From a virus (taxonomy: Duplodnaviria > Heunggongvirae > Uroviricota > Caudoviricetes): DNA of 34,806 nucleotides. Below, in pieces: positions 1,363 through 19,282 of the stretch. The notes beneath the pieces were generated by a model. It saw nothing but the letters and a program-made list of their open reading frames with translations, did no database searches and was not told the DNA's origin. Both the position numbers and the translations under genes were made by a program. Location of the stretch: IMG/VR virus record IMGVR_UViG_2695420763_000013. One strand, given 5' to 3'. Position 1 is the stretch's first letter; the number at the start of each line of letters is the position of its first letter.

Positions 1363-1446
1363 TTAATTTCGATTATTTTTCCCGGATGGAAAATTCTTAG
1401 AAACCGATCACATACAGCTGCATTTATTAAGGTTATCATCCGTTTC

Positions 1447-1533: not shown

Positions 1534-1597
1534 ACGCGTAATACAATGAAATAAAAGGATTTATTTCTGGTCACGTCCACACATTGACCACATCGAC

Positions 1598-1624
1598 AAA
1601 AAAGCCCCTCGACTGAGGGGCTTT
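1598..1624 (-). terminator. Rho-independent terminator downstream of ogr
   Basis: GC-rich hairpin GCCCCTC-GACT-GAGGGGC flanked by an A-run on the plus strand, giving a T-run after the stem on the minus strand, about 10 nt past the ogr stop. Confidence 0.6.
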
Positions 1625-1634
1625 CCATTTGTAA

Positions 1635-1853: not shown

Positions 1854-1933
1854 CGCGAGCACCTCTTCCGGTTTTGTTGATGGTGCCATTTTAGTTAATT
1901 TATCCTTATAAAACAAACAGATAAAACAAAACA

Positions 1934-3097: not shown

Positions 3098-3576
3098 TAT
3101 CCCGCCCCCGTCATACCCGTGAATCTGGTCGCCATACTGCCGGCCTTACCGATGAGCGATTCCGTCTGTTTACCGATATCGCCATAAAGCGCGGCCAGTG
3201 ATTCATCAACGCGGGTGAGCGACAGCGTAAAATCAATTTTTCGGGGTGTGCCGTCTGCAAAGAAAATACACCCTGTTTCACTCACCTTGCTGATGACATA
3301 CATGCCGTAAATCATTCCGGTGCCATCCAGCAACGGCCACGCCCGGCCTTCCTCTGCCATCAGTCTGAGCGTGGTCATCGTCAGCTTTCCGCCGGTCAGT
3401 TCGGGATAAAGCACACCGGCAAGCGTAATGTTTTCCTCACCCACACCGAGAAACTGAAAGGCATCCCGTTTGCCGATACGGGAATTTGACGGCCAGCGAT
3501 AATCTGATTCACGCTGCATGGTCTGGTGTGGCAGCGTCTGGCGCATAAAAACAAACATACCTAACGCGAGCATCAT
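3097..3576 (-). CDS. U: Tail protein U
   Basis: 159 aa, the P2 gpU length; 1-nt overlap with D start; conserved position between T and D. Confidence 0.85.
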   Translation of the reverse strand: MMLALGMFVFMRQTLPHQTMQRESDYRWPSNSRIGKRDAFQFLGVGEENITLAGVLYPELTGGKLTMTTLRLMAEEGRAWPLLDGTGMIYGMYVISKVSETGCIFFADGTPRKIDFTLSLTRVDESLAALYGDIGKQTESLIGKAGSMATRFTGMTGAG

Positions 3577-3590
3577 TTTTCGTCACCTCC

Positions 3591-6038
3591 TTAACCGTCA
3601 TGCATCATGCTGGCACGGGCACGCGCACGTTTATCCCGCTCGTATTTTTCGAGCGCATCCTGTAACTGGCGGTCAAGCTGTGTCCCCGGCGCAGTACCAC
3701 CCGTCAGGCTGATGTGATATTCGTTTTTACTCTGGTCCACATAAGAGCGGCCAGCCGGTGCCGTGACCGGCTGATAAGCCTGATAGCCTGCATAAGAACT
3801 GGTCGCCGGAATATAACCACCGGTGCCATACGTGGCGGCATGAGTTCTGGCGGCGGTCTGGTCAAGTGTGTCTGACTCTTTGTTGATGACCCCGAGCTTT
3901 TCCAGTACCCAGTCAATACCGCTGCGCAGTTTGTTGAACGCATTAAGCGGCAGCATCAGCGCGTCAGCCAGTGCCTGCCCGAACATGACGCCCGTGTCAC
4001 GGCAACGGTTCAGGGTGTCCTGTGTGGCTTTGACCGGGGCAATCAGGTTTTTAAACCACTGCCACGCGGCCTGTAACTTTTCGCCCAGCCAGTCAAACAC
4101 CGGTTTCAGTGGCGTGAACAGCTCCCCCACCGGCGCAAATGCCGCTTTCAGCCCTTCCACCACACCGCCAAAGAATGCGCTGACAGGCTCCCAGTATTTA
4201 CGGATAAGCAACGCCCCGGCGACAATGGCGGCCACCACGGCCACAACCGGCCAGCTAATCGCCCCGATGGCCGTCATAACAGCACTGCCAACCGTCATGA
4301 AGATTGCCCCCATTGCGCCTGCTGCCGCGATAATGGCATTGATGCCGGTGATAACCGGCCATGCTACAAGACCAATGGCACCGATGATGCCAATAAGCGC
4401 CAGCGCGCCACCGACAATGAGGCCGATGGTTGACGCCAGTGATTTGTTTTTCTGGATCCAGCCGTCGAGTTTTAACACATACTTTGTGGCCGTCTGAGTG
4501 AGTTTACGCAGTGCGCCTTCCTGCTGGTCAAACAGGTCTGTCCCCACCGCCTCATAAGCGGACTGAAACTCCTTAAAGTCACCGCCGAGGTTGTCCTGCA
4601 TGATATTTACCAGCTCGGCGGTCTTCCCGTCTGAGGCTTTAAACGCAGCGGTCAGTTTGTCCAGCTTTCCGGTTGAGGCGGCAGTCATCAGCACGGCGGC
4701 GGCTGAGCTGGCCTCCTCCCCGAAAATGGTTTTCATGTATTCAGCCTGCTGGGCAGTACCGAGCCGATTTTTCTCAAAACTGGCCTGCATTTCTTTCAGA
4801 ATGGTAAATATTGGTCGGGTGTTTCCCTTGCTGTCTGAGGTTTTCACACCAAGCTCTTTCAGTGCATCCCATGCTTTTCCCGTCGGTGCCTGCAGGCGGC
4901 TTAACACGGCACGGCTTCCCGTCCCCGCCATTGAACCGGTAATTTTTGCATCATGCAGCGCCCCGACCATTGCGGCGGTTTCTTCAATGCTGACACCGGC
5001 ATTTTTTGCCACAGGTGCGGCATAGGTCAGCGCATCGCTCATGCCGTCAAAATCGGCGGCGGTTTTGTTCATCGTCATGGAGAGAACATCCCCGATATGA
5101 GCGACCTTATCGTTTGAAAGCTGAAAGGCGGATTTCATCCCCATCAACAGGGCGGCGTTTTCTTCCATCGTGCGACGGTTCGCCAGCGCCATATTCAGCG
5201 TGACCGGCGTTGCCGCCTGAATGGCATCAACATCCCCACCCGCTTTCGCGATGATTATCTGTGCACCGGCCGCATCATCCGCCGAGGCGGCGGTATTGTC
5301 GCCGAGCTGGCGCGCCTGTTTGCGTAGTGCGGTCATTTCGGCGGAGTCTTTTGCCACTCCGAGCACGGCCTGCAATTCTGAGTTTTTCTGCGCAAACTCA
5401 TAACCGGGCATCAGCAACTTAACTCCGGCCATCGTTCCCGCCGCCGCAATCCCCACACCGGCAGCGCCTACTGAGGCCATATTTCCGGCCAGTTCCTTTC
5501 CGGCCTGATAACGCTGTTTGACTGCGTTAAGTTTTGCCTGTTGCGCACTGACACGCGCCAGCGCGTCGCGCTGACGGTTAAGCTGTGCGGTGGTTTCACT
5601 GATACGGTTTTTCAGTCCCTGCTCATCATGTGCAAGATTGCGGGTATTAATTCCCACAGCGGCCAGTTCCCGCTGCTGGCGTTTAACGGAATCCGTCAGG
5701 CGGTTATATTTCGCCTGTAAGTCCTCCGCCGCTCGCTTTGCGGATTCCAGCACTTTCGCCTGAGCACGGGTCGGACGTTCGGTGTTTTTAAACTGTGTGG
5801 CAAGGGCTTCGGCTTCCTGCCGTGCCTTTTCAAGTGCATGACCAGTCACGGCGAGCTGCGCACTGGTCTTGCGAAATCCCTCAATACGGGATGCGTGACC
5901 GTTCAGCTCGCGCAGTGATTTTTGTGTTTCCCGGATATCCCCCGACAGCGACTTGCTCGCTGTGCGGATGGATTTAAACGGGCGGGATGCCTGGTCAACA
6001 GCCCTGAGCAATACCTGTAATTTTACATTGTTACTCAT
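3591..6038 (-). CDS. T: Tail tape-measure protein T
   Basis: 815 aa, the P2 gpT length. N-terminal coiled-coil-like Q/R/A-rich region and a central Gly/Ala-rich hydrophobic segment. Its start overlaps the E' stop (ATGAGTAA). Confidence 0.9.
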   Translation of the reverse strand: MSNNVKLQVLLRAVDQASRPFKSIRTASKSLSGDIRETQKSLRELNGHASRIEGFRKTSAQLAVTGHALEKARQEAEALATQFKNTERPTRAQAKVLESAKRAAEDLQAKYNRLTDSVKRQQRELAAVGINTRNLAHDEQGLKNRISETTAQLNRQRDALARVSAQQAKLNAVKQRYQAGKELAGNMASVGAAGVGIAAAGTMAGVKLLMPGYEFAQKNSELQAVLGVAKDSAEMTALRKQARQLGDNTAASADDAAGAQIIIAKAGGDVDAIQAATPVTLNMALANRRTMEENAALLMGMKSAFQLSNDKVAHIGDVLSMTMNKTAADFDGMSDALTYAAPVAKNAGVSIEETAAMVGALHDAKITGSMAGTGSRAVLSRLQAPTGKAWDALKELGVKTSDSKGNTRPIFTILKEMQASFEKNRLGTAQQAEYMKTIFGEEASSAAAVLMTAASTGKLDKLTAAFKASDGKTAELVNIMQDNLGGDFKEFQSAYEAVGTDLFDQQEGALRKLTQTATKYVLKLDGWIQKNKSLASTIGLIVGGALALIGIIGAIGLVAWPVITGINAIIAAAGAMGAIFMTVGSAVMTAIGAISWPVVAVVAAIVAGALLIRKYWEPVSAFFGGVVEGLKAAFAPVGELFTPLKPVFDWLGEKLQAAWQWFKNLIAPVKATQDTLNRCRDTGVMFGQALADALMLPLNAFNKLRSGIDWVLEKLGVINKESDTLDQTAARTHAATYGTGGYIPATSSYAGYQAYQPVTAPAGRSYVDQSKNEYHISLTGGTAPGTQLDRQLQDALEKYERDKRARARASMMHDG

Positions 6039-6458
6039 TCGTGTTTCCGCTTCGCCGGAGCGCCTTTTCGCGCCATGTGATGAGTTCGGTCAGGCTCATG
6101 GGATACAGTTCTGATGGCGGCCAGTGAAATATCACTGCCACATCCGCCATCAGGTCATCGACCGAGAGATTTTTCGGAAACGTCACTGCACCGAGTTCGG
6201 CGACAAAAAACCGACCACCTTACCGGCCAGCGCCACAAGGTCAGGCAGTTCCAGCGCGGCGACTTCCTGCTCGGTCAGCATCGGTGCCGTCATGCGCGGC
6301 AGCACTTTAATCAGTGCATCGACTTCGGAGTTCGCGACTGCAGCCAGACTGACACCGCGCAGCGTCCCGGCATTGGGTTTCATCAGCGTGACCTGTTCGA
6401 TAACCTGCTCACCACGTTTGACCGGATTGTCCAGGGTAATGACGTTTTCTTTGTTCAT
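6031..6458 (-). CDS. E': Tail assembly chaperone E+E' (programmed -1 ribosomal frameshift product)
   Basis: Slippery heptamer T-TTT-TTG (minus strand, plus-strand 6204..6210) lies 7 codons before the E stop. The -1 frame continues open for 57 codons to a TAA at 6031..6033 that overlaps the T start. Predicted product is 142 aa, the P2 E+E' length. Confidence 0.75.
6183..6458 (-). CDS. E: Tail assembly chaperone E
   Basis: 91 aa, the P2 gpE length; located between T and FII. Confidence 0.85.
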   Translation of the reverse strand: MNKENVITLDNPVKRGEQVIEQVTLMKPNAGTLRGVSLAAVANSEVDALIKVLPRMTAPMLTEQEVAALELPDLVALAGKVVGFLSPNSVQ

Positions 6459-6514
6459 GGTTTTCTCACTTCTGAATCGGGGTTAACCGGTCAGCCAGGC
6501 TGACCGGATGAAAA

Positions 6515-7033
6515 TCACAGGCCGATATTGCGGCGGTGTTGCTCCAGCCGGTCGACGCCGTTCACCTTCTCAATCATGTTGATGGTGTCGATTTCGACCA
6601 GCTCCTTACCGTCCATCGTCAGCCGGAAATAGGTGCAGACCACGGAGATTTTCGACTCGGTGTCTTCTCCCTGTTTGCCCTCGCCGGTGTCGATTTCTTT
6701 CTGACGGCCACGCATGACCACCTCGACGGCCACCGTTTCGCCGGTATCGTCGCGCTGGTAAGAGCCGGCAAAACGAATCGGTACGGCATCCACACCGGTT
6801 GCGGCGTAAAGCTCCCAGATAACCGAATCCGGGAAGCCACCGAGCGACCACTCCATTGACAGCGCATCGTCATCAAGGCCGAGGTCTACCGGTGCGCTGC
6901 CGTTCATCCCCGCACCGCGATAGTTTTCGAGCTTACGGGTCAGTTTTGGCAGCGTGACGGACTTCGCGACGCCCTGATAGCTGTAGCCGTTCAGAAAGAC
7001 GTTCATTAACTTGAGTTTGCGCGGCATTGCCAT
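6515..7033 (-). CDS. FII: Tail tube protein FII
   Basis: 172 aa, the P2 gpFII length; immediately downstream of FI. Confidence 0.9.
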   Translation of the reverse strand: MAMPRKLKLMNVFLNGYSYQGVAKSVTLPKLTRKLENYRGAGMNGSAPVDLGLDDDALSMEWSLGGFPDSVIWELYAATGVDAVPIRFAGSYQRDDTGETVAVEVVMRGRQKEIDTGEGKQGEDTESKISVVCTYFRLTMDGKELVEIDTINMIEKVNGVDRLEQHRRNIGL

Positions 7034-7045
7034 CGGTCAGGCTCC

Positions 7046-8236
7046 TTAATTGCTGTTAACCGAGGTGACCAGATTTGCCAGGTATTTATCGGTAATACGC
7101 TGGCGCAGGGTCAGGTTTTCAAGAGGAGGCACCGGTGTATAGTCGTAGTCGATATACAGTTTTCCGGCCTTGAGGGTTTCCGCATCGTTGGATTCTTCGC
7201 TGAACCAGCAGGTCGCATCCACGATATAGCCGTTTGTTTTCAGCTCACGGAATTTGGCATTGATGCCGTCAACGATGTCGCGAATCAGCGTTGCGGTGAT
7301 GGGCTTGTCCACCGCCCACATGTGCGCCTCAGCCATCGTGTCGGCCAGCACCTGCGCGGTGCGGGTGTAGTTTTCAAAGAGGAACAGCGGGTCATCAGAG
7401 CAGGTACGGTTACCCCAGAAGCGGAAACCGTCGCGGCGAATCAGCGTAGTGACGCCTGACTCATTAAGCAAGTCAGCATCGGTGCCGGACTCCTGCAAAT
7501 CCCAGAATACAGAGGCGCTGATGCCGGTAACACCGTTCACCCCGACATTGGACAGCGTTTTATGCCAGCCCTGCTCCTGGTCGATTTTGGCACGCAGCCC
7601 CAGTGCACGGGCGGTGGCATACGCGGTGGCGGTGGTACTGGTGACCGTATCCCATGCGAGGAAATCCGGCCAGATGACCATCAGCTCACGCTGGCTGAAA
7701 TTCTGACGGTAGGCTTTCACCTCGGAAATGGTTTTACAGCCCCATGCGCTGATATACCCGAAAGCGCGCAGCTTCTGACAGACTGATGCCAGTGCAACAG
7801 CCACCTCTTTGGTGTCCAGTCCCGGCACGCCGAGAATACGCGGTTTAACACCGGTTACCGACTCTGCCGCCAGCAGGGCTTTCAGTCCGGTATACTGACC
7901 GTTTTCGTCGGTGGTGCCGATGATATTGGAAACGGTCTGCGCGAGTTTCGTTTCTTCGTCTTCGCCGGTGCCGTCTTCAACACGCACGACAACGGTGACC
8001 GGTTTTGACTGGTCAGCGATGGCCTGTAACGACGCCGCCAGCGTGCCTTTTTTACCGGCCTTTGCAATTGCGCTCTGCACATTGGTAATCAGCACCGGTT
8101 TATTGAGGGGGAAGATTTCCGCATCCGCATCGCTGGCCGTGCAGACCATGCCGACAATGGCAGTGGATACGGTGGAAATGACGCGGGTGCCGTCGTTAAT
8201 CTCCAGCACCTGCACGCCGTGATGATAGTCACTCAT
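7046..8236 (-). CDS. FI: Contractile tail sheath protein FI
   Basis: 396 aa, the P2 gpFI length; conserved synteny. Confidence 0.9.
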   Translation of the reverse strand: MSDYHHGVQVLEINDGTRVISTVSTAIVGMVCTASDADAEIFPLNKPVLITNVQSAIAKAGKKGTLAASLQAIADQSKPVTVVVRVEDGTGEDEETKLAQTVSNIIGTTDENGQYTGLKALLAAESVTGVKPRILGVPGLDTKEVAVALASVCQKLRAFGYISAWGCKTISEVKAYRQNFSQRELMVIWPDFLAWDTVTSTTATAYATARALGLRAKIDQEQGWHKTLSNVGVNGVTGISASVFWDLQESGTDADLLNESGVTTLIRRDGFRFWGNRTCSDDPLFLFENYTRTAQVLADTMAEAHMWAVDKPITATLIRDIVDGINAKFRELKTNGYIVDATCWFSEESNDAETLKAGKLYIDYDYTPVPPLENLTLRQRITDKYLANLVTSVNSN

Positions 8237-8295
8237 CCGTTTAACTCCGTGGTTAATGGGTGAGTGATATTTTCAGTTGTGCCGGAGATGTCAGG

Positions 8296-8889
8296 CTATT
8301 TGTCCCGGTTGGCTAAGGGATGACACAATTTATTCTTTGTCGCTGATGAGGGAAATTTTTTATAGAGCGTGGACAGGCCAATATCAAAAATCAGCGCCAC
8401 ACGTTGACGAGATTCCCCCGCAGCCAGCAACCGTCCGACCTGCTCCCACTCACTCGCGGTGAGTTTCGGACGTCTGCCACCAATACGACCTTTGGCTCTG
8501 GCCGCTTCCAGTCCGGCGCGTGTCCGCTCGACAATGAGTTCTCGTTCCATTTCAGCCAGGGCACCCATCACATGGAAGAAAAAACGCCCCATCGGCGTGC
8601 TGGTATCAATAGCATCCGTCAGGCTGCGAAAATTAATGCCGCGTTCGCGCAGTTCCTCGACCAGAATGACCAGATGCCGCATACTACGCCCCAGCCTGTC
8701 CAGCTTCCAGACAACCAGAGTGTCACCTTCCGATAATGTTCTGAGCAGTTTTTTCAGCCCCGGTCGGTCGGACTTCGTGCCGCTGATTTTATCCTCAAAA
8801 ATCAGCTCACATCCTGCGCACTCCAGCGCGTTACGCTGCAATTCCGTATTCTGGTCATTTGTTGATACGCGGACATAGCCAATAAGCAT
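8296..8889 (-). CDS. Serine recombinase, DNA invertase (Hin/Gin/Pin/Cin family)
   Basis: N-terminus MLIGYVRVSTNDQ carries the catalytic serine motif; resolvase-type catalytic domain and a C-terminal helix-turn-helix (LSTLYKKF); adjacent to the tail-fibre crossover sites. Confidence 0.9.
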   Translation of the reverse strand: MLIGYVRVSTNDQNTELQRNALECAGCELIFEDKISGTKSDRPGLKKLLRTLSEGDTLVVWKLDRLGRSMRHLVILVEELRERGINFRSLTDAIDTSTPMGRFFFHVMGALAEMERELIVERTRAGLEAARAKGRIGGRRPKLTASEWEQVGRLLAAGESRQRVALIFDIGLSTLYKKFPSSATKNKLCHPLANRDK

Positions 8890-8956
8890 GATGGATCCCC
8901 TGAATAAAAACCGGGGATGATGCCAGTTAGCCGTAATCTCTGCATTTTCTTAAACG

Positions 8957-8971
8957 TTGGTTTGGGAGAAG
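8957..8971 (+). other. Putative invertase crossover-site core, copy 1 (TTGGTTTGGGAGAAG)
   Basis: Identical 15-mer at 10579..10593 (same orientation) and 12416..12430 (inverted); in each copy it encodes G-L-G-E at the junction between constant and variable tail-fibre parts. Confidence 0.55.
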
Positions 8972-9318
8972 CGGCGAAAAGGGATGTGGGTACAGGAGAA
9001 AATCAGATACCGGATATGTCAGCCTGGAAAAGAAATCCGAGTTCTAATCGCTGGAGAAAATTGCCTGATGGAACCATCATTCAAATGGGAATATCAGCAT
9101 CAGGGCCATTAGGCTCACCTGTAAATATCACCCTGCCGATATCTTTCAGCAATACCAATTATTGTGTTGTTGCATCGTACGATAATGCACGGTCAGGTGT
9201 GTCAACAATGGTTAGTTTTGCAGCATTACCTGTTTCACCATCGCAATTTTCCCTGATGTCATCTGTGACTGAGCAAGGAATAAATCCTTTTGCTTACTGG
9301 ATTGCTTTTGGAGATTGA
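8959..9318 (+). CDS. Promoterless tail-fibre C-terminal cassette (exact copy of the H C-terminus)
   Basis: Translation from the crossover core (GLGEAAKRDVGTGENQ...AFGD) is identical to the last ~120 aa of H (12069..12430, minus strand). The upstream part of the ORF-track ORF 8917..9318 is out-of-cassette read-through. Confidence 0.5.
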   Translation, partial: GLGEAAKRDVGTGENQIPDMSAWKRNPSSNRWRKLPDGTIIQMGISASGPLGSPVNITLPISFSNTNYCVVASYDNARSGVSTMVSFAALPVSPSQFSLMSSVTEQGINPFAYWIAFGD

Positions 9319-9321
9319 TAA

Positions 9322-9741
9322 ATGGACAGATACTTCTATTCACAAAAAGAAAATGGTTTTTTTACCGATTTAAATAAAGCACCTTCAGATGCTGTTGAGA
9401 TAACCACGGATGAATGGCTATCACTACTGGATGGTCAGGATAATGGCATGAAAATAGTCAGCAATCAGGAGGGATATCCGGTTTTGACAGAGCAACCACC
9501 TTTATCAAAAGAAAACCTTATTGCATTGGTAGAGTTGAAAAAAGGAAAACTTATTAATGAAGCCAACGAGCACATGAACAGCAGGCAATGGCCTGGTAAA
9601 GCGGCTATTGGTCGTCTGAAAGGTGAGGAACTGGCGCAATATAATTTGTGGCTGGATTATCTGGACGCACTGGAGCTGGTCGATACTTCCAGTGCGCCAG
9701 ATATTGAATGGCCTACGCCTCCGGCAGTTCAGGCCAGATGA
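9322..9741 (+). CDS. Tail fibre assembly chaperone (Tfa family), copy of 11646..12065
   Basis: 139 aa with a Tfa-type C-terminus (WLDYLDALELVDTSSAPDIEWPTPP); identical to the chaperone immediately downstream of H. Confidence 0.7.
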   Translation: MDRYFYSQKENGFFTDLNKAPSDAVEITTDEWLSLLDGQDNGMKIVSNQEGYPVLTEQPPLSKENLIALVELKKGKLINEANEHMNSRQWPGKAAIGRLKGEELAQYNLWLDYLDALELVDTSSAPDIEWPTPPAVQAR

Positions 9742-10315
9742 TATCCGGCGCGGTGCTGGTATCTGTTACCGTCACCGCGTCAATGTAATCCAGCACGGCG
9801 TTAAGTCGGGTTGTTTCTGCCTGCGTCAACTTCCGTCCGGCCTGCAATTTCAGTTGAATCAGACTAATGGAAGCCATTGCAGTATCAATCAGTGACTGAC
9901 GTTGTGCTTCTGCCGCGTCTACTGCGGCGCTATGCTGTGCCTCGGTATCCGTCACCCATTTCTCACCATCCCATTTATCGTATGGCGTTAACGGGGCGAT
10001 AGTGGTTGTATTATCAGGGTAATCACCCGGAACTGTGATTTCTTTTGATTCTCCTGTTTCGGTGCTAAAGACGATTTCACCGCGATGGTCTGGCACATAT
10101 TCCCATGAGTTAAAATCTGCAGATCGGCAGATTGCATAACCAGCTTTGTATGCGCCTGGGGCATCTAAACAGGAATATGCCGGAATGCCGACACCAATAG
10201 CAAGATATTCAGTTGAAGCTGAAATATATTCCCGACTCATGACATCAAAGTTATAAACAGTAATTTCTCCTGCCATAGTGGCAATTAATTCACTGTTTAA
10301 TTCTGCGTTATTCAT
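9713..10315 (-). CDS. Tail fibre assembly chaperone (Tfa family), copy of 11072..11674
   Basis: 200 aa with a Tfa-type C-terminus (LDYIDAVTVTDTSTAPDIIWPELP); identical to the plus-strand copy. Confidence 0.7.
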   Translation of the reverse strand: MNNAELNSELIATMAGEITVYNFDVMSREYISASTEYLAIGVGIPAYSCLDAPGAYKAGYAICRSADFNSWEYVPDHRGEIVFSTETGESKEITVPGDYPDNTTTIAPLTPYDKWDGEKWVTDTEAQHSAAVDAAEAQRQSLIDTAMASISLIQLKLQAGRKLTQAETTRLNAVLDYIDAVTVTDTSTAPDIIWPELPEA

Positions 10316-10576
10316 TATGCAGCCCTCACAATATAGTTAAAAGCGACATTTCGTGGGCGTGTTTCATTCGCACCAGCAGGTTTAGTCGTTGCCGCAACAA
10401 CACCACCCTCTGTAATAGCCGGGTTGGGAATTGGGTAATTATCGAAGTCAATGGCCGGAGACAGGGGCGTGATTTGTTTTAAAATCGTGGTGCCTGTAAA
10501 ACTTTCCAGAGTCTGGTCGTTAGTTCGTGAAGTCCAGATTCCCCAATAGTGGTTATGACTGACAATCGCACCGTCC
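10315..10576 (-). pseudogene. Truncated copy of tail-fibre cassette B C-terminus (lacks N-terminal part and crossover site)
   Basis: Exact reverse complement of 10811..11072; the repeat identity ends at 10576, so this copy has no in-frame crossover core or start. Confidence 0.5.
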
Positions 10577-10578
10577 TA

Positions 10579-10593
10579 TTGGTTTGGGAGAAG
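10579..10593 (+). other. Putative invertase crossover-site core, copy 2
   Basis: TTGGTTTGGGAGAAG at the start of cassette B, 2 bp after the end of the left repeat arm. Confidence 0.55.
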
Positions 10594-11072
10594 GCTCTGC
10601 ATTACCTGTTGGTGTCCCTGTTCCGTGGCCTTCAGCCACTCCGCCGACAGGCTGGATGAAATGCAACGGTGCGGCTTTTTCTGCTGAAGAATACCCGGAA
10701 CTGGCAAAGGCTTACCCGACAAATAAATTGCCTGATTTACGCGGTGAGTTTATTCGTGGCTGGGATGACGGACGTGGAGTGGATAACGGAAGGGGATTAT
10801 TAACGCTTCAGGACGGTGCGATTGTCAGTCATAACCACTATTGGGGAATCTGGACTTCACGAACTAACGACCAGACTCTGGAAAGTTTTACAGGCACCAC
10901 GATTTTAAAACAAATCACGCCCCTGTCTCCGGCCATTGACTTCGATAATTACCCAATTCCCAACCCGGCTATTACAGAGGGTGGTGTTGTTGCGGCAACG
11001 ACTAAACCTGCTGGTGCGAATGAAACACGCCCACGAAATGTCGCTTTTAACTATATTGTGAGGGCTGCATAA
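10581..11072 (+). CDS. Alternative tail-fibre C-terminal cassette B (receptor-binding tip), promoterless in this orientation
   Basis: Begins in frame inside the crossover core (GLGEGSALPVGVPVPWP...). The pattern GW-KCNGA, LPDLRGEFIRGWDDGRG and C-terminal RP-NVAFNYI is typical of Mu S/P1 S-type variable tail-fibre tips. The ORF-track start at 10584 is a TTG. Confidence 0.6.
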   Translation, partial: GLGEGSALPVGVPVPWPSATPPTGWMKCNGAAFSAEEYPELAKAYPTNKLPDLRGEFIRGWDDGRGVDNGRGLLTLQDGAIVSHNHYWGIWTSRTNDQTLESFTGTTILKQITPLSPAIDFDNYPIPNPAITEGGVVAATTKPAGANETRPRNVAFNYIVRAA

Positions 11073-11674
11073 TGAATAACGCAGAATTAAACAGTGAATT
11101 AATTGCCACTATGGCAGGAGAAATTACTGTTTATAACTTTGATGTCATGAGTCGGGAATATATTTCAGCTTCAACTGAATATCTTGCTATTGGTGTCGGC
11201 ATTCCGGCATATTCCTGTTTAGATGCCCCAGGCGCATACAAAGCTGGTTATGCAATCTGCCGATCTGCAGATTTTAACTCATGGGAATATGTGCCAGACC
11301 ATCGCGGTGAAATCGTCTTTAGCACCGAAACAGGAGAATCAAAAGAAATCACAGTTCCGGGTGATTACCCTGATAATACAACCACTATCGCCCCGTTAAC
11401 GCCATACGATAAATGGGATGGTGAGAAATGGGTGACGGATACCGAGGCACAGCATAGCGCCGCAGTAGACGCGGCAGAAGCACAACGTCAGTCACTGATT
11501 GATACTGCAATGGCTTCCATTAGTCTGATTCAACTGAAATTGCAGGCCGGACGGAAGTTGACGCAGGCAGAAACAACCCGACTTAACGCCGTGCTGGATT
11601 ACATTGACGCGGTGACGGTAACAGATACCAGCACCGCGCCGGATATCATCTGGCCTGAACTGCCGGAGGCGTAG
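11072..11674 (+). CDS. Tail fibre assembly chaperone for cassette B (Tfa family)
   Basis: 200 aa; ATG overlaps the cassette B stop; Tfa-type C-terminus. Confidence 0.75.
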   Translation: MNNAELNSELIATMAGEITVYNFDVMSREYISASTEYLAIGVGIPAYSCLDAPGAYKAGYAICRSADFNSWEYVPDHRGEIVFSTETGESKEITVPGDYPDNTTTIAPLTPYDKWDGEKWVTDTEAQHSAAVDAAEAQRQSLIDTAMASISLIQLKLQAGRKLTQAETTRLNAVLDYIDAVTVTDTSTAPDIIWPELPEA

Positions 11675-12065
11675 GCCATTCAATATCTGGCGCACTGGAA
11701 GTATCGACCAGCTCCAGTGCGTCCAGATAATCCAGCCACAAATTATATTGCGCCAGTTCCTCACCTTTCAGACGACCAATAGCCGCTTTACCAGGCCATT
11801 GCCTGCTGTTCATGTGCTCGTTGGCTTCATTAATAAGTTTTCCTTTTTTCAACTCTACCAATGCAATAAGGTTTTCTTTTGATAAAGGTGGTTGCTCTGT
11901 CAAAACCGGATATCCCTCCTGATTGCTGACTATTTTCATGCCATTATCCTGACCATCCAGTAGTGATAGCCATTCATCCGTGGTTATCTCAACAGCATCT
12001 GAAGGTGCTTTATTTAAATCGGTAAAAAAACCATTTTCTTTTTGTGAATAGAAGTATCTGTCCAT
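11646..12065 (-). CDS. Tail fibre assembly chaperone for the current H variant (P2 G-like)
   Basis: 139 aa directly downstream of H on the same strand; Tfa-type C-terminus. Confidence 0.75.
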   Translation of the reverse strand: MDRYFYSQKENGFFTDLNKAPSDAVEITTDEWLSLLDGQDNGMKIVSNQEGYPVLTEQPPLSKENLIALVELKKGKLINEANEHMNSRQWPGKAAIGRLKGEELAQYNLWLDYLDALELVDTSSAPDIEWPTPPAVQAR

Positions 12066-12068
12066 TTA

Positions 12069-13256
12069 TCAATCTCCAAAAGCAATCCAGTAAGCAAAAG
12101 GATTTATTCCTTGCTCAGTCACAGATGACATCAGGGAAAATTGCGATGGTGAAACAGGTAATGCTGCAAAACTAACCATTGTTGACACACCTGACCGTGC
12201 ATTATCGTACGATGCAACAACACAATAATTGGTATTGCTGAAAGATATCGGCAGGGTGATATTTACAGGTGAGCCTAATGGCCCTGATGCTGATATTCCC
12301 ATTTGAATGATGGTTCCATCAGGCAATTTTCTCCAGCGATTAGAACTCGGATTTCTTTTCCAGGCTGACATATCCGGTATCTGATTTTCTCCTGTACCCA
12401 CATCCCTTTTCGCCGCTTCTCCCAAACCAAGGTATGCGAGAAGACCAGCTACATCCTTTCCACTCAAATGAGTCAGCGTCTCATCCAGTGGCTGCTTACC
12501 TGACAGCGCATTGTTAATGGTGGCGCTGAATTTCGGGTCATTGTTAATGGCTGCGGCAATTTCTTTCAGTGTGTCCAGCGTGGCTGGCGCGCCGTTAATC
12601 AGAGCGGTAATAGCAGCCTGTACAAACGCAGTGGTCGCAATCCGCGTGGTGTTATTTCCTGCATCAGGCGTCGGCGCTTTTGGTTCTCCGGTAAATGTCG
12701 GATTATGTTTCTGTGCATACTGGGTATGAGGATCCTGTGCGGCAATGTGGTTTCTCATCTGGTCATCCACATACAGCCTTAATTCCAGGACTTCATCATC
12801 CACGTATTTACGGGTCGCCAGTACCACCGACGGGTCGATTTTCAGCGTGATGGCTTCGGTATTCGTGACAACCAGAATCATGCGGATAGTCTGGGTACGA
12901 CCACTGCCTTCCTGTAACTGCGGTTTGTACGTTTCCGGGCAGTTCGCCACCGCAATGAGTACGCCTTCATCATCATAAAGCCCAATCTCACGGATCCAGA
13001 ATCCGCCCTCGTTCTCAGGGATGATTTGCTCCGCAATAATCTGGCTCTGGTTATTCGGGTCAACACTCAGAAGATTCAGCGGCGCGATGCGTTTCTGGTT
13101 AATAAGTTTTGTCTGTGCCGGGTCTGGTGTCGGCAAGACACCATTTGCATCACCAACGGCCATTTGCGTCAGATTCAGCTTACTGCCGAGCATCGTCGCG
13201 TTAGCCAGCCGTGCCGCGCCCTGATTAGTCAGAATGGCGTAGTATTTCACTGTCAT
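12069..13256 (-). CDS. H: Tail fibre protein H (constant N-terminal part fused to variable cassette A)
   Basis: 395 aa. The N-terminus resembles P2 gpH (MAVGD...GGFW.RE.GLYDD.G.LIAVAN....YKP...EGSGR). The C-terminal ~120 aa begins at the inverted crossover core 12416..12430. Confidence 0.85.
   Translation of the reverse strand: MTVKYYAILTNQGAARLANATMLGSKLNLTQMAVGDANGVLPTPDPAQTKLINQKRIAPLNLLSVDPNNQSQIIAEQIIPENEGGFWIREIGLYDDEGVLIAVANCPETYKPQLQEGSGRTQTIRMILVVTNTEAITLKIDPSVVLATRKYVDDEVLELRLYVDDQMRNHIAAQDPHTQYAQKHNPTFTGEPKAPTPDAGNNTTRIATTAFVQAAITALINGAPATLDTLKEIAAAINNDPKFSATINNALSGKQPLDETLTHLSGKDVAGLLAYLGLGEAAKRDVGTGENQIPDMSAWKRNPSSNRWRKLPDGTIIQMGISASGPLGSPVNITLPISFSNTNYCVVASYDNARSGVSTMVSFAALPVSPSQFSLMSSVTEQGINPFAYWIAFGD
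12416..12430 (-). other. Putative invertase crossover-site core, copy 3 (inverted, inside H)
   Basis: Reverse complement of TTGGTTTGGGAGAAG; encodes G-L-G-E in H. Confidence 0.55.
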
Positions 13257-13864
13257 GCGTTTACTCTCAGGTTATCAATTAAATGAATGGCCGAGGCCGG
13301 GAAATAATCCCCTCCGACAATAATGGCCTCCGGGGTGTAGGGATAAACCGTCAGGGCGTCGCCGTGATAGCATCCCGCACCGGCAAAAATGTTGCCGGTT
13401 GTACTTAAACTGATAGCCAGTCCCGTCAGATGGCGGCTTGCAGGTTTTGCATCAGCAACGAGACGCTCCAGCTCCTGATACATTTCCTCGGTAATACCCT
13501 GCTCAAGCACGCCAACAACGATGCGGAACGTCCCCGGCTCCTCGTTGAGCTGCCACCACTCCCTCACCTCAATCAGATAGCCGAGCGGCTCCACCACACG
13601 GCGAATCGCACCAATAGTGCCCTTATGGCAGTGAATGAAATACGCATCGCGGATAACAGCGCGTTTTGTCGCTTCCGGCCACTTATCATCCCAGCGGTCA
13701 ACCGAAAATGACCACGCCAGCCACGGCAGCAGATTTGCCGGGCAGGTGTCCGGGTTCCACAGCTCACGAATACTGACCGGCGTTTTTTCAATTTCCGCAC
13801 AGGCTTTTGCGGCGGCAACTTCAAGCGGTGATGAGCCGGTCGGCAGCAGGCGCGAATCACTCAT
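13253..13864 (-). CDS. I: Baseplate protein I
   Basis: 203 aa between J and H; overlaps both neighbours by a few nt. Confidence 0.75.
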   Translation of the reverse strand: MSDSRLLPTGSSPLEVAAAKACAEIEKTPVSIRELWNPDTCPANLLPWLAWSFSVDRWDDKWPEATKRAVIRDAYFIHCHKGTIGAIRRVVEPLGYLIEVREWWQLNEEPGTFRIVVGVLEQGITEEMYQELERLVADAKPASRHLTGLAISLSTTGNIFAGAGCYHGDALTVYPYTPEAIIVGGDYFPASAIHLIDNLRVNA

Positions 13865-14765
13865 CCGAGCCTCCGGTCACGACGCTGTATTCGGTGCAGA
13901 AAGACGCCTGCGTACTGTTGAGCACAATGTCAGCCAGAGGTGCGGCCAGCTCGACACGCTGCACGCCTTCCACATGCAACGCGGCATAAATGGCAGACAG
14001 ACGGATGTCGCGCCCCAGCCGGTGCTGTGCCGTGATATACGCTTCCAGCTTTTTCACGGCAGCAGCGCGGATGGGTTCGCTTTCGGGACCAGGGTAAAGG
14101 TAAAGCGTGGCGTTTATCTGGTATTCAACGATGGCGGCAGACTGCACGGTCACGCGGTCGGCCACCGGCCTGACGTCCTCGCCATTAAGGGCGTTACGCA
14201 CCACGGCCAGCAGGTCTTCGGATGCGACGCCGTTATTTTCACGTGACAGCACAGAGATAGTGACGCAGGCCGGAGACGGACTGGTGACAGAGATATCCGC
14301 GACACGCCCGTCGGCACTGCGACCATGATACTGATAGGCTCCCACCGACCCGGCGACGCTTAAGCCCTCAAACGCCTGCTGAATACGCAGACGATAATCG
14401 GTGTCAGACTCCATCACTGCCGGTGTCGGCGGGATGGTCGAATCATCTGCCGGGGTGATAATCAGGCGCGTGGTGTTGTAATTGGCACCAATCACATCAA
14501 GGTCATTACCGGCGGCACAGGCCAGCATTACCGCCCGTGCGGCCTCATTCACACGCTGACGCCAGATAAGCTCACGATAAGCATTTTCCTCCAGCAGTTT
14601 GACGAGAGGCTCGGATTCCAGCGTCAGGGTACGGGCAACCGCCTCCTGCTGGTCTTCCGGGTAAAGGGAAATCAGTGTCGCCTTGCGTTCGGCAAGAATG
14701 GTTTCAAAGTCCAGCTCCTCGACCACATCCGGTGCGGGTAGCTGGTTCAGGTCGATAATCGGCAT
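13857..14765 (-). CDS. J: Baseplate wedge protein J
   Basis: 302 aa, the P2 gpJ length; conserved position. Confidence 0.85.
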   Translation of the reverse strand: MPIIDLNQLPAPDVVEELDFETILAERKATLISLYPEDQQEAVARTLTLESEPLVKLLEENAYRELIWRQRVNEAARAVMLACAAGNDLDVIGANYNTTRLIITPADDSTIPPTPAVMESDTDYRLRIQQAFEGLSVAGSVGAYQYHGRSADGRVADISVTSPSPACVTISVLSRENNGVASEDLLAVVRNALNGEDVRPVADRVTVQSAAIVEYQINATLYLYPGPESEPIRAAAVKKLEAYITAQHRLGRDIRLSAIYAALHVEGVQRVELAAPLADIVLNSTQASFCTEYSVVTGGSDE

Positions 14766-14769
14766 GGTT

Positions 14770-15117
14770 TCAACTCACAGGGATGGTTAACGAAAGTGGC
14801 TGGCCGGTGTCGTTGTGCTGGCCGGTTAACGTGACCGTCATTCGCCCGTCAAAACTGCGCTCAGTGGTGACGGATGACAGGGTGACGCGGGGTTCCCATT
14901 TCAGCACCGCCATGTAACAGGCGACCTTAATCTGCAACTCAAGCGCCGGGGTCTGCGGCTGGTCAATCATTGACGCCAGCAATGAGCCGTAATCACGACG
15001 CATCACCCGTGAGCCGACCGGCGTGCGCAGGATATCGCCGATACTCTGGCTGATATGCTCAAGGTCAGTGACAGTCAGGCCATCACTGCGATTCATTCCA
15101 AGATAACGCGCTGTCAT
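14770..15117 (-). CDS. W: Baseplate protein W
   Basis: 115 aa, the P2 gpW length. Confidence 0.8.
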   Translation of the reverse strand: MTARYLGMNRSDGLTVTDLEHISQSIGDILRTPVGSRVMRRDYGSLLASMIDQPQTPALELQIKVACYMAVLKWEPRVTLSSVTTERSFDGRMTVTLTGQHNDTGQPLSLTIPVS

Positions 15118-15749
15118 AGAGGACTCCCGGTTGTGCCGCCGCTGTCGCCGGGGTGTTTATGGGTATGCAGTACCTTACCGTTTGATGAGAGTTCACCGCC
15201 GGTATGTTTAATGTTGCCGCGCATCGTCCCGCCCTTCTGCACTTCCAGCGTGCCGGTAATCAGTCTGTTGGTGCAGACCACCTCCGGGGTGTCCAGGGTG
15301 ATGCGGGTTGACGCTTTCACCATGACCACCGGCACCGTGGCAGTAACAGAATCAGAAGCCGTCACGCTGGCCGTTTTAATTCCGCTTACCGTGAGTGCAC
15401 TGGTTTCGGGTTCATACTCAATCACCGCCCCGTCAGGGAAACGGATATGCAGGGCATCCGCCGACGCAGACGGCGCGGGGTTATCGCCGGAATAAATCCC
15501 CGGCAGAACGAACGCCGTGTCGAGTTCACCGCCCACGGCCAGAATCAGCACCTGTTCCCCCACGGAAGGTGCCCACCATGTGCGCGAACGTCCGGCGCGA
15601 TGGGTCAGCCACTGAAGCCAGTCGGTGCACATGCCGCCGGTCTGCACACGGCAGCGACCGGCGTTAAGGTCGGTTTCGACGATAATGCCGGTGCGGATCA
15701 TGTTGCGCAGTGCGCGCGCGAGTTCCTGAATATTTGCGAGAGTGTTCAT
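15114..15749 (-). CDS. V: Baseplate spike/hub protein V
   Basis: 211 aa, the P2 gpV length; 4-nt overlap with W. Confidence 0.85.
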   Translation of the reverse strand: MNTLANIQELARALRNMIRTGIIVETDLNAGRCRVQTGGMCTDWLQWLTHRAGRSRTWWAPSVGEQVLILAVGGELDTAFVLPGIYSGDNPAPSASADALHIRFPDGAVIEYEPETSALTVSGIKTASVTASDSVTATVPVVMVKASTRITLDTPEVVCTNRLITGTLEVQKGGTMRGNIKHTGGELSSNGKVLHTHKHPGDSGGTTGSPL

Positions 15750-15815
15750 AACGGGAAGGATGCCGCCGGGTCATACCGGCGGCAATGTGCCGATGAGGTG
15801 TCGGGAATGGCACAA

Positions 15816-16268
15816 CTAACGGTCGAGGTGAGCCAGGATAATCTCTTCAATCATCTGCACATCCTCACCGGTAAAGCCGAGCAGAGGACGCGCCGGATAA
15901 TCAATTTTCTTACCGTCTTTCCGGTTTTCTTCCGACAGACCGAACTGATGCACACTGGCGATTTTCGGCGACTTCCCGCCGTAAAACTCCATTGATGCCT
16001 GCTCCGGGCTGGCGCGGATATGCAAAAAACGACTGGTGATAAGTTTCGCAAACATTTTTCGCTTAACGCGACCGGTCTTTTTTCTGGCGCTCTGCTGCTG
16101 GCGTGGTGCGTAGGGTGTGCCGTCCGGGGCTTTCTGTGCCATCACCCGGCGCTGCTGACTCTGACGCAGACGTTTCGCCAGTTCGGCGCTCAGTCGCCGA
16201 CGCCCTGACGGTGACAGCGACTCAATCAGTCCGGTCAGCCGGTCTTCAAAACGCTTAAACTCATTCAT
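15816..16268 (-). CDS. S: Tail completion protein S
   Basis: 150 aa, the P2 gpS length; follows R. Confidence 0.8.
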   Translation of the reverse strand: MNEFKRFEDRLTGLIESLSPSGRRRLSAELAKRLRQSQQRRVMAQKAPDGTPYAPRQQQSARKKTGRVKRKMFAKLITSRFLHIRASPEQASMEFYGGKSPKIASVHQFGLSEENRKDGKKIDYPARPLLGFTGEDVQMIEEIILAHLDR

Positions 16269-16728
16269 CCCACTTACTCACCAGTTCACCATTGATATAA
16301 AGCTCCATCGGGCGGGTGACCGGCTCCGGCGGCGGGGGTTCCGGGATATTCTTCACATGCAGCGCGCCGTCCACCTCACTGACCAGCGTGCGCTCGGTCA
16401 GCATCAGGCTGATGCTGATATCAAAGCTGCTGTCATTGTTGATGTCCGCATAAAACGTGAAGCCCTTTTTCTGGCCTGCGTCGGTGGTCATGATGTCGGG
16501 CTGATTTTCCCGCAGCCACGCCAGCACCGGCACGATGAGCAGGTCAAAATCACCGGTAAAGTCGGTCACAATCACATTGAGCGTGTAACGCTTTTCGAAT
16601 GACAGCGACGTCGCCAGTGTGGAGGCAATACTCCCGTTATCCACGAATATCCGCAACATATCGGGGTTAGTTTTCAGCACCGTGACGGCATCAGTCAGCG
16701 CCCTGCGCAGGCTGTCGGGTTTGAGCAT
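16261..16728 (-). CDS. R: Tail completion protein R
   Basis: 155 aa, the P2 gpR length. Confidence 0.8.
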   Translation of the reverse strand: MLKPDSLRRALTDAVTVLKTNPDMLRIFVDNGSIASTLATSLSFEKRYTLNVIVTDFTGDFDLLIVPVLAWLRENQPDIMTTDAGQKKGFTFYADINNDSSFDISISLMLTERTLVSEVDGALHVKNIPEPPPPEPVTRPMELYINGELVSKWDE

Positions 16729-16981
16729 CGTTTTCGTCCTGACAGTGTTTAATCATTTTTACCTGGCTGGCACAGCGTGCCAGCGCGTTCTCAAGCTGCC
16801 GGATATCGGCACTTAAATCGCCGTTCGTCTGCGGGTCACTGCCCGGCATCGGGCAAAGGCTCACTTTCGGGCAGGCGTTGGCGACAATCACTGGCGTCAG
16901 TGCAGGCGGGGCGCTGGTGCAACCGGCGCACAGCATCAGGCAGGTCAGCACCGTACCAGCGGCGAAAATCTTCGTTTTCAT
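16691..16981 (-). CDS. lysC: LysC, outer-membrane lipoprotein spanin (Rz1-like), embedded in lysB
   Basis: 96-aa product from the internal ATG at 16979..16981 (MKTKIFAAGTVLTCLMLCAGC), with a signal peptide and LCAGC lipobox; +1 frame inside lysB. The 166-aa ORF-track version is an upstream extension. Confidence 0.65.
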   Translation of the reverse strand: MKTKIFAAGTVLTCLMLCAGCTSAPPALTPVIVANACPKVSLCPMPGSDPQTNGDLSADIRQLENALARCASQVKMIKHCQDENDAQTRQPAQGAD

Positions 16982-17261
16982 TAAGTAACCTCGTGATGGT
17001 TTTCTCGCGCTGTGCTTCACGCTTCGCGGCGTTCTCCAGTTCCTGACGCAGTGCCACCTGCGCCAGCTCGTTTTTGTCTGCCCTGGTGATGGCAACATGA
17101 AGCTGATTTTGCAGCATGGTGATGGTCGTCTGCTGCCCGCTGGCGACGTTGTTCGCCCTGTCCAGCGAGGCGCGCAGGCTGGCGTTTTCATGCTTCACCA
17201 GAAACAGCCCCGCCACCGCCAGCGATAACAGCACAACCATCACAATCATCAGCTTTGACAT
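16836..17261 (-). CDS. lysB: LysB, inner-membrane spanin (Rz-like)
   Basis: 141 aa, the P2 LysB length; N-terminal transmembrane helix followed by a charged coiled-coil region. Confidence 0.75.
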   Translation of the reverse strand: MSKLMIVMVVLLSLAVAGLFLVKHENASLRASLDRANNVASGQQTTITMLQNQLHVAITRADKNELAQVALRQELENAAKREAQREKTITRLLNENEDFRRWYGADLPDAVRRLHQRPACTDASDCRQRLPESEPLPDAGQ

Positions 17262-17674
17262 GGTTCCCGCCCCTCAAAACGCTGACGGCAGGCCGTACGT
17301 ATCAGCCGGAAGAACACCGACGCCACGAGATAAATCAGCGCGGTAAAAATCCACCCGGCAGCGACCAGCGAGATAAACGTCGCCACCATCACCACCAGAG
17401 CCACCGCCCGTCTGCGCCACGGCACCGGCTGCAAAAACAGCGACGTGACAATCTTCACGGCCAGCGATTCCGGCGGCAGCTCCCGCCCGTAGCGTTCCAG
17501 CACATACTCAGTGGCATACACGCCGACACCACCGGCAACCACACAGATAACCGTCGCCAGAATCGCCCAGGCGGCGACAAAACTGACGGCCACGCTCTGC
17601 GGGTAAATCAGGGACAGTGCCAGCATCAGCGCCAGCGACACGTTCAGCATCAGTGAAAGGGATAATTTCTTCAT
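17249..17674 (-). CDS. lysA: LysA, membrane protein of the lysis cassette
   Basis: 141 aa, the P2 LysA length; several predicted transmembrane segments. Confidence 0.7.
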   Translation of the reverse strand: MKKLSLSLMLNVSLALMLALSLIYPQSVAVSFVAAWAILATVICVVAGGVGVYATEYVLERYGRELPPESLAVKIVTSLFLQPVPWRRRAVALVVMVATFISLVAAGWIFTALIYLVASVFFRLIRTACRQRFEGREPCQS

Positions 17675-17688
17675 GGTGTTTACTCCGT

Positions 17689-18186
17689 TTAAGCCGGTAC
17701 GCCGCCAGCGGTACGCCAGACGGTGACCAGTTTTTCCAGTGAATGCTCACGCTGACCGTAACCGGCACCCGGCAGGGACGCCCAGATATTGCGACAGCGT
17801 GAAATGGCGCGCTCAATGCGTCCCGCCCGGATGTCATCCAGTGCACCGCGTTCGCGGATCAACTGAATGGCAAGTCTGTCCTGTGACAACGGACTGAAAT
17901 CCGGCAGGGCAAGCTGTTTGCGGTAATGCGGCCAGAACAGGTAAAGCTGCTGATAGCGACCGGAGGCCGTGGATTTTTCACCGCGACGGTTAAACACCTT
18001 CGCCGGTCGGCCATGTGCGAACGGGTGGTCACTGTAGTCGGTGAAAATTTCCGGCTTCCCGTCCAGTCCGGTGACTATCACGTTATAGCCCCGGTTTTTC
18101 GTCAGCGGATGATTCGCCGTCCCTTCGGACACGGCCAGCATGTCGAGAAAGGCGGCGATATTCTGATGTGTGCTAATTACCGGCAT
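17689..18186 (-). CDS. K: Endolysin K (lysozyme)
   Basis: 165 aa, the P2 gpK length; lies between the holin and lysA. Confidence 0.85.
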   Translation of the reverse strand: MPVISTHQNIAAFLDMLAVSEGTANHPLTKNRGYNVIVTGLDGKPEIFTDYSDHPFAHGRPAKVFNRRGEKSTASGRYQQLYLFWPHYRKQLALPDFSPLSQDRLAIQLIRERGALDDIRAGRIERAISRCRNIWASLPGAGYGQREHSLEKLVTVWRTAGGVPA

Positions 18187-18467
18187 TACGGTTTCCCCCT
18201 GCCCTTAAAGCGGCGCTGAATGGCAATCTCAATCACCTGATAACCGGCGATACCCAGCATGGAGCCGATGCCGCACACCGCAGGCAGTGACAGGTCAGGA
18301 AACTGCACCAGAACAACACCGGCAACCATCGAGACAAAACCACCGAGCAACATGCGCCCGATAAACAGACGCGGAGTGATGGGTTCACCACCGGCAAGCA
18401 CCTTGCCGACAACAATCAGCACCCCAATCATGAAAAGCGACAGGACGCTTTTTTCTTCTGCTGTCAT
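18186..18467 (-). CDS. Y: Holin Y
   Basis: 93 aa, the P2 gpY length; hydrophobic segments with a charged C-terminus (RRFKGRGKP). Confidence 0.75.
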   Translation of the reverse strand: MTAEEKSVLSLFMIGVLIVVGKVLAGGEPITPRLFIGRMLLGGFVSMVAGVVLVQFPDLSLPAVCGIGSMLGIAGYQVIEIAIQRRFKGRGKP

Positions 18468-18470
18468 GCG

Positions 18471-18674
18471 TTACTCCCACAGATTGACAGTTTCAGCCAC
18501 GGGCGCGGTCTGAACGTCGGGCAGTTCGACGGCGGTGCCGTGTGGCAGCACCGCCCCCAGTTCAGCCAGTCCCGGATTTGCGGCGAGCACGGCCTCGACC
18601 ACGCCCTCAGTGCGCCCGTAATACCGGACACAAATGGCGTCGAGCGTGTCGCCCTGTAGCGCAAAGGTCTTCAT
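18471..18674 (-). CDS. X: Tail protein X
   Basis: 67-aa product from the internal ATG at 18672..18674 (MKTFALQGDTLDAICVRYYG), the P2 gpX length; TGATG start/stop overlap with L. Confidence 0.75.
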   Translation of the reverse strand: MKTFALQGDTLDAICVRYYGRTEGVVEAVLAANPGLAELGAVLPHGTAVELPDVQTAPVAETVNLWE

Positions 18675-19183
18675 CAGATTTGACTCACGATGCAGCGCGG
18701 CTTGTCCTGGATACGCGCCACCGCCCAGCGCATATCCCGCCACAGCTCATCAATGGTGCTGTCAATGCTGTCGGCCTTCTTGTCGCCCTTGGCACTGGCA
18801 TCCACGCCGCGATAACGCTCATAAAGCGACGCGGTCGCCATCGCACACACAGCGCGCTCGTAGTAAAAAACTTTGATGCTTTCACCGTCGATGTCGTCCG
18901 CCGGGACGTCAGCCAGACGCGAAAAACCGGCAGCAATTTTCTGTTCGCGGTACTCGTACAGCTCCGCATTCGTCTCCGCCATGCCTGACTTGATGGCCTC
19001 ACGCAGACGGGCGGGGGCGACGGTCTGCTCAAGGCGCATACGTTCCCGGACGCGCTTCGGGTCAATATCGGGAAAAAAGAACGTGTTTTTAATCACCGGC
19101 TCGTCGCCTGCCGGTTGCGGGATGACCACCGTACCCTCACCGGACACGGGAGTCTCCTTTCGCGGAATAATCAGCGTCATCAT
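18674..19183 (-). CDS. L: Head completion/stabilisation protein L
   Basis: 169-aa product from the ATG at 19181..19183 (MMTLIIPRKE), the P2 gpL length. Confidence 0.8.
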   Translation of the reverse strand: MMTLIIPRKETPVSGEGTVVIPQPAGDEPVIKNTFFFPDIDPKRVRERMRLEQTVAPARLREAIKSGMAETNAELYEYREQKIAAGFSRLADVPADDIDGESIKVFYYERAVCAMATASLYERYRGVDASAKGDKKADSIDSTIDELWRDMRWAVARIQDKPRCIVSQI

Positions 19184-19282
19184 GACTACCTCTGAAAAGT
19201 CGGGCGGTGGACGCCGGTACAGTGTCAGGTGATTCACCCACACTGACCGGCGTGCCGCCCTGGCGCGGGGCGCATTCGGTTG

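Follow-up and report, generated by a model that had tools for sequence, protein, structure and literature searches.

The analyzed DNA (the window, 34,806 nt in full) comes from a P2-like prophage, and the locus described here occupies positions 8296 to 13256. An invertase gene on the minus strand lies at the left end, the constant part of the tail-fiber gene H lies at the right end, and two opposed tail-fiber tips, each with its own chaperone, lie in between. The features are listed below by position. Domain assignments are Pfam matches with their bit scores, and crossover sites were scored with a position weight matrix (PWM) of the half-site.

8296–8889, minus strand: Gin/Pin/Cin/Hin-type serine DNA invertase, 197 aa (Resolvase, 177 bits; HTH_7, 49 bits).
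8945–8970, plus strand: s1, the true invertase-proximal crossover site, TTTTCTTAAACG TT GGTTTGGGAGAA (28.0 bits, the best PWM score in the window).
8957–10577, unstranded: probable artifactual inverted copy of 10810–12430, with 0 mismatches to its reverse complement and with the N join as its boundary.
10578, unstranded: putative scaffold join, N in record CYCV01000001.1 and A in the window.
10579–12430, unstranded: the genuine invertible segment (1,852 bp, crossover TT through crossover AA), in the unflipped state.
10579–11072, plus strand: tip 2, the silent alternative tip (Collar, 57.8 bits).
11072–11674, plus strand: tip 2 chaperone, 200 aa (Caudo_TAP, 112.7 bits).
11646–12065, minus strand: tip 1 chaperone, 139 aa (Caudo_TAP, 89.5 bits).
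12069–12415, minus strand: tip 1, the currently expressed variable 3′ part of H (Gp53-like_C, H residues 310–394).
12417–12442, minus strand: s3, the H-proximal crossover site, TTCTCGCATACC TT GGTTTGGGAGAA on the minus strand (27.2 bits, the second-best PWM score).
12431–13256, minus strand: constant part of H, outside the segment (Phage_tail_fib N-terminal domain, 210 bits).

The product of 8296–8889 is a complete recombinase with an N-terminal catalytic domain and a C-terminal HTH, and its motif YVRVSTNDQ holds the catalytic residue, Ser9. The first-pass annotation had called this gene a Hin/Gin-family serine invertase, and the Resolvase and HTH_7 matches bear this out. It had also named a mutated catalytic serine as an observation that would count against a switch; this residue was checked, and Ser9 is intact. 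The protein matches the Gin structure 3UJ3 in the PDB over residues 1–182 (E = 4e-94), and it is identical to Mu Gin at 148 of 193 residues (77%). The 5′ region of the invertase gene aligns with that of Mu gin in long identical blocks, and the 68 nt between the crossover TT at 8957–8958 and the invertase ATG at 8889 equal the distance in Mu. A loose Fis-motif scan of this 5′ region, run without a reference enhancer sequence, detected no pair of motifs at the expected spacing.

The complete H gene occupies 12069–13256 on the minus strand and encodes 395 amino acids, with a Phage_tail_fib amino terminus and a Gp53-like tip. The open reading frames and Pfam matches uphold the earlier description of two cassettes between the cores, one with the current tip and its 139-aa chaperone (minus strand), the other with an alternative tip and its 200-aa chaperone (plus strand). 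The constant 5′ part of the gene is outside the segment, two opposed promoterless 3′ ends are inside it, each accompanied by a chaperone, and both fusions are in frame. The residues GLGE, predicted to be encoded by the core in either context, are present as ...AYLGLGEAAKRD in the current H and as ...AYLGLGEGSALPVG after in silico inversion. Inversion was also expected to join the constant part of H to the alternative tip. The in silico product is a 439-aa H-tip2 protein that has natural counterparts, and it is 1 residue off the annotated proteins of two relatives (L001 and L171; L numbers designate the loci compared). The label "Mu S-type" for the alternative tip did not survive comparison. 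No similarity between tip 2 and either Mu S or S′ could be detected (E ≥ 0.7), and the analogy is one of organization only.

Exact matching located the 15-bp core, TTGGTTTGGGAGAAG, at three places in the window, compared to 0.08 expected by chance. Two of them, at 10579–10593 (+) and 12416–12430 (−), are the inverted pair reported before, and the other is at 8957–8971 (+). A half-site PWM was built from 92 natural sites, taken from 159 related loci, and the whole window was scanned with it. The sites are laid out as 12 + 2 + 12 nt. Both s1 and s3 are imperfect palindromes of 26 bp that flank the segment in inverted orientation, each with TT as the central dinucleotide on its own strand, and the best score elsewhere in the window is 11.5 bits. 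The s1 site aligns column for column with Mu gix, with equal spacing to the invertase start codon. The third site, at 10567, reads CGCACCGTCCTA TT GGTTTGGGAGAA; its left half, CGCACCGTCCTA, matches 3 of 12 half-site positions and is not a half-site. Two sites in the window pass the PWM, and the three or more complete crossover sites of a multiple-inversion system were not found. The core at 10579 had been proposed as the invertase-proximal site, a role that belongs to 8945–8970. The 10579 core appears to be a repeat sighting of that site, where another assembly piece begins. The invertase had been described as adjacent to the switch, which is accurate for single-copy relatives, where it lies beside the segment, and inaccurate for the window, where it is ~1.7 kb from the 10579 core because of the inverted copy at 8957–10577.

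Positions 8957–10577 and 10810–12430 form a perfect inverted repeat of 1,621 nt with 0 mismatches and a 232-nt spacer. The left arm presents, in the layout of the flipped state, tip 1, both chaperones (139 aa and 200 aa), and the 3′ part of tip 2. This 1,621-nt repeat and the third core at 8957 were overlooked in the first-pass annotation.

A look-up of the exact 395-aa H protein identified the source of the window as NCBI assembly GCA_001286025.1, contig CYCV01000001.1 (724 kb; locus L162). Three places encode this protein: L161 (CP148523.1) and L163, which are both single-copy, and L162, which has the duplicated arrangement. Comparison of L162 with window positions 6069–19256 revealed a single difference, the A at window position 10578, which is an N in the record. 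A second stretch of CYCV01000001.1 (L173) covers window positions 1–13097 and 8 kb beyond. Over window positions 1–19256, the span covered by the N count of the source record, position 10578 is the sole difference between record and window, and it is the lone N in ~27 kb of the record. For the rest of the window, on the right, comparison with another locus (L183) showed collinearity.

The joint at this position was searched for in other sequences. Not one of 5,426 complete E. coli genomes covered a 101-nt probe (10530–10630); where the right half of the probe is matched, the match begins at the core. Exact-pattern scans of viral, genome, and metagenome contig collections did not detect the joint either. 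The region homologous to a 5,101-nt query is ~3,479 bp in complete E. coli genomes and phage records, which equals the query minus 1,622 nt, and no record in these two sets covers 80% or more of the query. The copy at 8957–10577 is missing from every single-copy relative and from the 5,426 complete E. coli genomes. A genuine inverted duplication should give continuous determined sequence over the novel joint, reproducible in independent data. Since the joint base is N in the record and the joint is absent from the collections, this was not found. As read from the assembled sequence, position 10578 appears to be a one-N join of two assembled pieces, a joint that would never have been read across. 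The right-hand piece starts at the crossover TT, where the path from the invertase flank through TT and the core into tip 2 and the path from the H flank through TT and the core into tip 2 part ways. The two orientation states branch at the TT, and the coincidence of the joint with the cleavage point is therefore only apparent. The sequence gives no explanation for the end of the left piece at 10577; a stalled gap-filling extension is only a guess at the cause.

Close relatives with 99.7 to 99.9% DNA identity over the region are found in both orientations. The unflipped relatives are L161, L163, and L172, and the flipped relatives are L001 and L171. L161 and L163 encode a 395-aa H-tip1 identical to that of the window, and L001 and L171 encode the 439-aa H-tip2. 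Deletion of 8957–10578 alone makes the window collinear with L161 and L163. The corrected window is 33,184 nt long and has the order invertase, s1, 1,852-bp segment, s3, and constant part of H. When 8957–10578 is deleted and 10579–12430 is inverted in silico, the product is collinear with L001 (E. coli LR9-2, the closest relative), without gaps and with 6 mismatches over 9,479 nt. Both orientations thus occur among near-identical prophages. The left piece of the window contains the flipped-state junction (invertase, s1, tip 1), and the right piece contains the unflipped-state junction (tip 1, s3, H). Because a single chimera holds both junctions, the simplest inference is that the two orientations coexisted in the DNA of the sequenced culture and that the switch was active.

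These data point, with a probability of about 0.9, to a standard Gin-type inversion switch of a P2-like prophage in which the extra 1,622 nt (8957–10578) would be an assembly artifact. The artifact reading is based on the N at the joint, the failure to find the joint elsewhere, the lack of a quasi-site, the recurrence of the N signature in other contigs, and the single-copy relatives in both states. The segment consists of two opposed, promoterless tip-plus-chaperone cassettes between s1 and s3. In the proposed mechanism, the invertase would cut both 26-bp sites at the central TT/AA and rotate the segment. H would then be completed by either tip 1 (Gp53-like, giving a 395-aa protein, with the 139-aa chaperone) or tip 2 (Collar, giving a 439-aa protein, with the 200-aa chaperone). 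Inversion is likely to have taken place in the source strain, and the exchange of tips would presumably alter receptor specificity and with it the host range. In a culture containing both orientations, the first assembled piece would have passed the invertase, crossed s1, and entered the segment in its flipped state. The second would have begun at the crossover TT and reached H by way of the unflipped segment. The two pieces would probably then have been linked by a single N, put in by a scaffolder or gap-closer.

A survey covered 159 loci carrying related invertases. Six other public contigs (L003, L009, L049, L064, L071, and L080) have long inverted or direct repeats of 100% identity beside the invertase. 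The repeat ends coincide with true sites, and each of the six contigs has a single N located 1 nt from the repeat boundary. In three contigs (L071, L080, and additionally L091), an N lies immediately next to the same core. Across 1.85 Mb of loci, Ns are confined to the six repeat contigs, L091, and the source record. Many draft contigs terminate at the invertase. Evidently, invertible segments from mixed cultures break and confuse assemblies. Cultures of mixed orientation would repeatedly yield perfect inverted or direct duplications with a single-N join, in 7 of about 160 loci, and once the N has been swapped for a base the artifact resembles an exotic three-site locus. Single-N joins therefore call for caution when databases are mined for invertons, palindromes, or "multi-site" shufflon-like loci. 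A flipped and an unflipped junction within one assembly can also serve as indirect evidence of switch activity in the sequenced culture.

The two pieces could also come from two near-identical P2-like prophages or tail-fiber modules that are fixed in opposite orientations, rather than from one switching locus. Shared tail-fiber modules within one genome are common: among the E. coli genomes that match the region, the median number of matching places is 2 and the maximum is 14. Against such a chimera, the scaffold puts both pieces in a single prophage whose flanks are unique, the invertase is intact, as are both sites, and mixed orientation in clonal cultures is documented for such loci (PMC4272514). 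These points make a two-prophage origin quite unlikely.

A real inverted duplication, with the N as one uncertain base at the true junction of a three-core locus, is a very unlikely explanation. Its origin would be either fold-back priming or template switching, as an illegitimate event where the invertase had cleaved a site, or tandem duplication of 10810–12430 followed by two inversions. The right side of the joint starts exactly at the crossover TT, as a cleaved site would predict, but this boundary is equally expected from an assembler because the orientation states diverge there. By topological reasoning, a simple tandem duplication and two inversions do reach the observed isomer. However, the lone N in ~27 kb sits exactly on the joint, the combination of N and repeat recurs in six unrelated contigs, neither a quasi-site nor microhomology is present at 10810, and the joint was seen nowhere else in the E. 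coli genomes and the viral, genome, and metagenome collections searched. If the duplication were true, recombination between the two good sites would flip the 232-nt center only, H would be locked to tip 1 with an intact silent tip 2 retained, and the locus would be a natural case of a serine invertase making a duplication and a self-locking switch. The N could still be one ambiguous base at a real junction, as the join is seen in assembled sequence alone.

Specific origins of the inverted copy were considered individually and set aside. Unequal exchange with a quasi-site was not supported by the score of the breakpoint at 10809/10810, which is that of random sequence (17th to 65th percentile of random scores in the PWM). 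The route through tandem duplication of 10810–12430 and two inversions works on paper and needs an illegitimate joint, which is the N. Fold-back priming or template switching that starts at a cleaved site would likewise yield the isomer on paper and needs an illegitimate joint too, but the joint shows no microhomology, and its supposed 1-nt filler "A" is not a real base. A p15B-like multi-site system was discarded on finding that the third core is without a left half-site.

A fossil switch, in which no inversion is left in the strain and the flipped left junction derives from contamination or misjoining, deserves almost no weight: nothing positive favors it, and it is opposed by the full-length invertase with Ser9 and 77% identity to Gin, by two sites that score far above background and have a common central dinucleotide, and by near-identical relatives in both states.

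The preferred reading, an ordinary inversion switch with an assembly artifact, places the locus among well-described systems. Canonical P2 (NC_001895) shares the backbone, in which the baseplate genes J and I are followed by H and then by FI, FII, E, T, U, and D. It differs in that its H is fixed (record positions 12734–14743); it has one chaperone (G) as well as fun(Z), and it lacks both an invertase and an invertible segment. The gene order H-G-fun(Z)-FI in this record agrees with the earlier statement that canonical P2 is without such a switch. The G segment of Mu, with Gin and gix, is a close counterpart. Both systems have a small serine invertase, a 26-bp imperfectly palindromic site with equal spacing to the start codon, and a constant 5′ fiber part outside a segment that contains two variable 3′ ends in opposite orientations, each with a Caudo_TAP chaperone after it. 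At 1.85 kb, the segment is shorter here than in Mu (about 3 kb), and the central dinucleotide is TT/AA here and GA/TC in Mu at the aligned position. The tip sequences are not related to those of Mu S and S′, and the host element, unlike Mu, is a P2-like prophage, in which the switch occupies the G/fun(Z) position.

The Pin system of e14, Cin of P1, and Min of p15B have invertases of the same family and follow the same logic of swapping tail-fiber carboxy termini. The e14 inversion system is discussed in PMC4272514. The p15B Min system has several genuine sites and many isomers, whereas two sites pass the site model here.

Invertible tail-fiber switches in P2-like prophages are already known, published, and common in E. 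coli, most genomes of which carry them, and the biological gain from another Gin-type example is small. Invertible P2-like loci of E. coli, including those of EPEC E2348/69, phage pro483, and many others, are the same kind of element at the same genomic position. In the annotation of phage records, that of pro483 for example, a DNA invertase neighbors two tail-fiber and two assembly genes, and parts of the region are matched by 3,842 of the 5,426 complete E. coli genomes. A 2024 survey found that the P2 Z/fun hotspot often holds a DNA invertase with adjacent genes inverted (bioRxiv 10.1101/2024.10.15.618418). Goldberg et al. (2014; PMC4272514) showed experimentally that two P2-like prophages of EPEC undergo inversion, with coexisting variants. 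The EPEC locus with three repeats and four variants is genuine, whereas the third site here is most probably artifactual; the present locus has its own pair of tips and is otherwise essentially the same.

Perfect long inverted or direct repeats lie near the invertase genes of six IMG/VR contigs (L003, L009, L049, L064, L071 and L080). A crossover site borders every one of these repeats, with a single N located 1 nt from a repeat end, and in some of these contigs a duplicated invertase flank is part of the repeat. These repeats are scaffolding artefacts of the same kind as the inverted duplicate and N join in the window, and the artefact is recurrent at invertase loci across public viral contig sets. 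The source record of the window (CYCV01000001.1) carries a gene called straight over this join.

10315-10602, minus strand: gene for a 95-aa protein, running across the N join

In the window, the A substituted for the N produces a TAG stop at this point. Because the gene spans the join, the annotated 95-aa protein in the public collection is the product of an assembly artefact.

Short-read contigs are routinely terminated by the invertible segment. Many draft-genome contigs (genome_contigs) end within about 100-200 nt of the invertase gene, among them those carrying loci L085, L086, L089, L094, L095, L098-L101 and L110. In a related prophage (L170; GCA_045574545.1; region 1243-4209), an IS21-family element (IstA/IstB) has inserted between a 146-aa chaperone and the invertase. 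The tail-fibre protein H of L170 is a 442-aa Collar-type fusion, and no tip-1 (Gp53-like) cassette was called in the locus. Taken together, these features of the L170 sequence indicate that its switch has probably been locked by the insertion.

The first base of the window (1-1362) is the start of the ATG codon of a peptidase U32 gene; the right end (34806) is the boundary of a yegR-like gene. These edges place the prophage between the two host genes. A ParE/ParD toxin-antitoxin pair lies directly outside the left end in the source strain (L173, a stretch of the source record, 13200-13794); the pair is absent from the equivalent place in L170 and in the flipped relative L171.

The window also carries a two-gene cargo of low GC content (36-43%), flanked by replication gene A on one side and the portal gene on the other.

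25341-28413, minus strand: two-gene cargo
Within 25341-28413, minus strand: SIR2 protein, 417 aa (PADLOC SIR2, 630 bits)
Within 25341-28413, minus strand: HerA ATPase, 627-aa ORF (920 bits)

The longest SIR2-carrying contig was just 2-5 kb in 42 of the 45 index blocks of the SIR2 protein look-up, and those shown were about 4.2 kb. These lengths suggest that the cargo is often flanked by assembly breaks at both ends. The cargo occupies the position of the P2 old/tin hotspot, and its two predicted products identify it as the known SIR2-HerA anti-phage defence pair.
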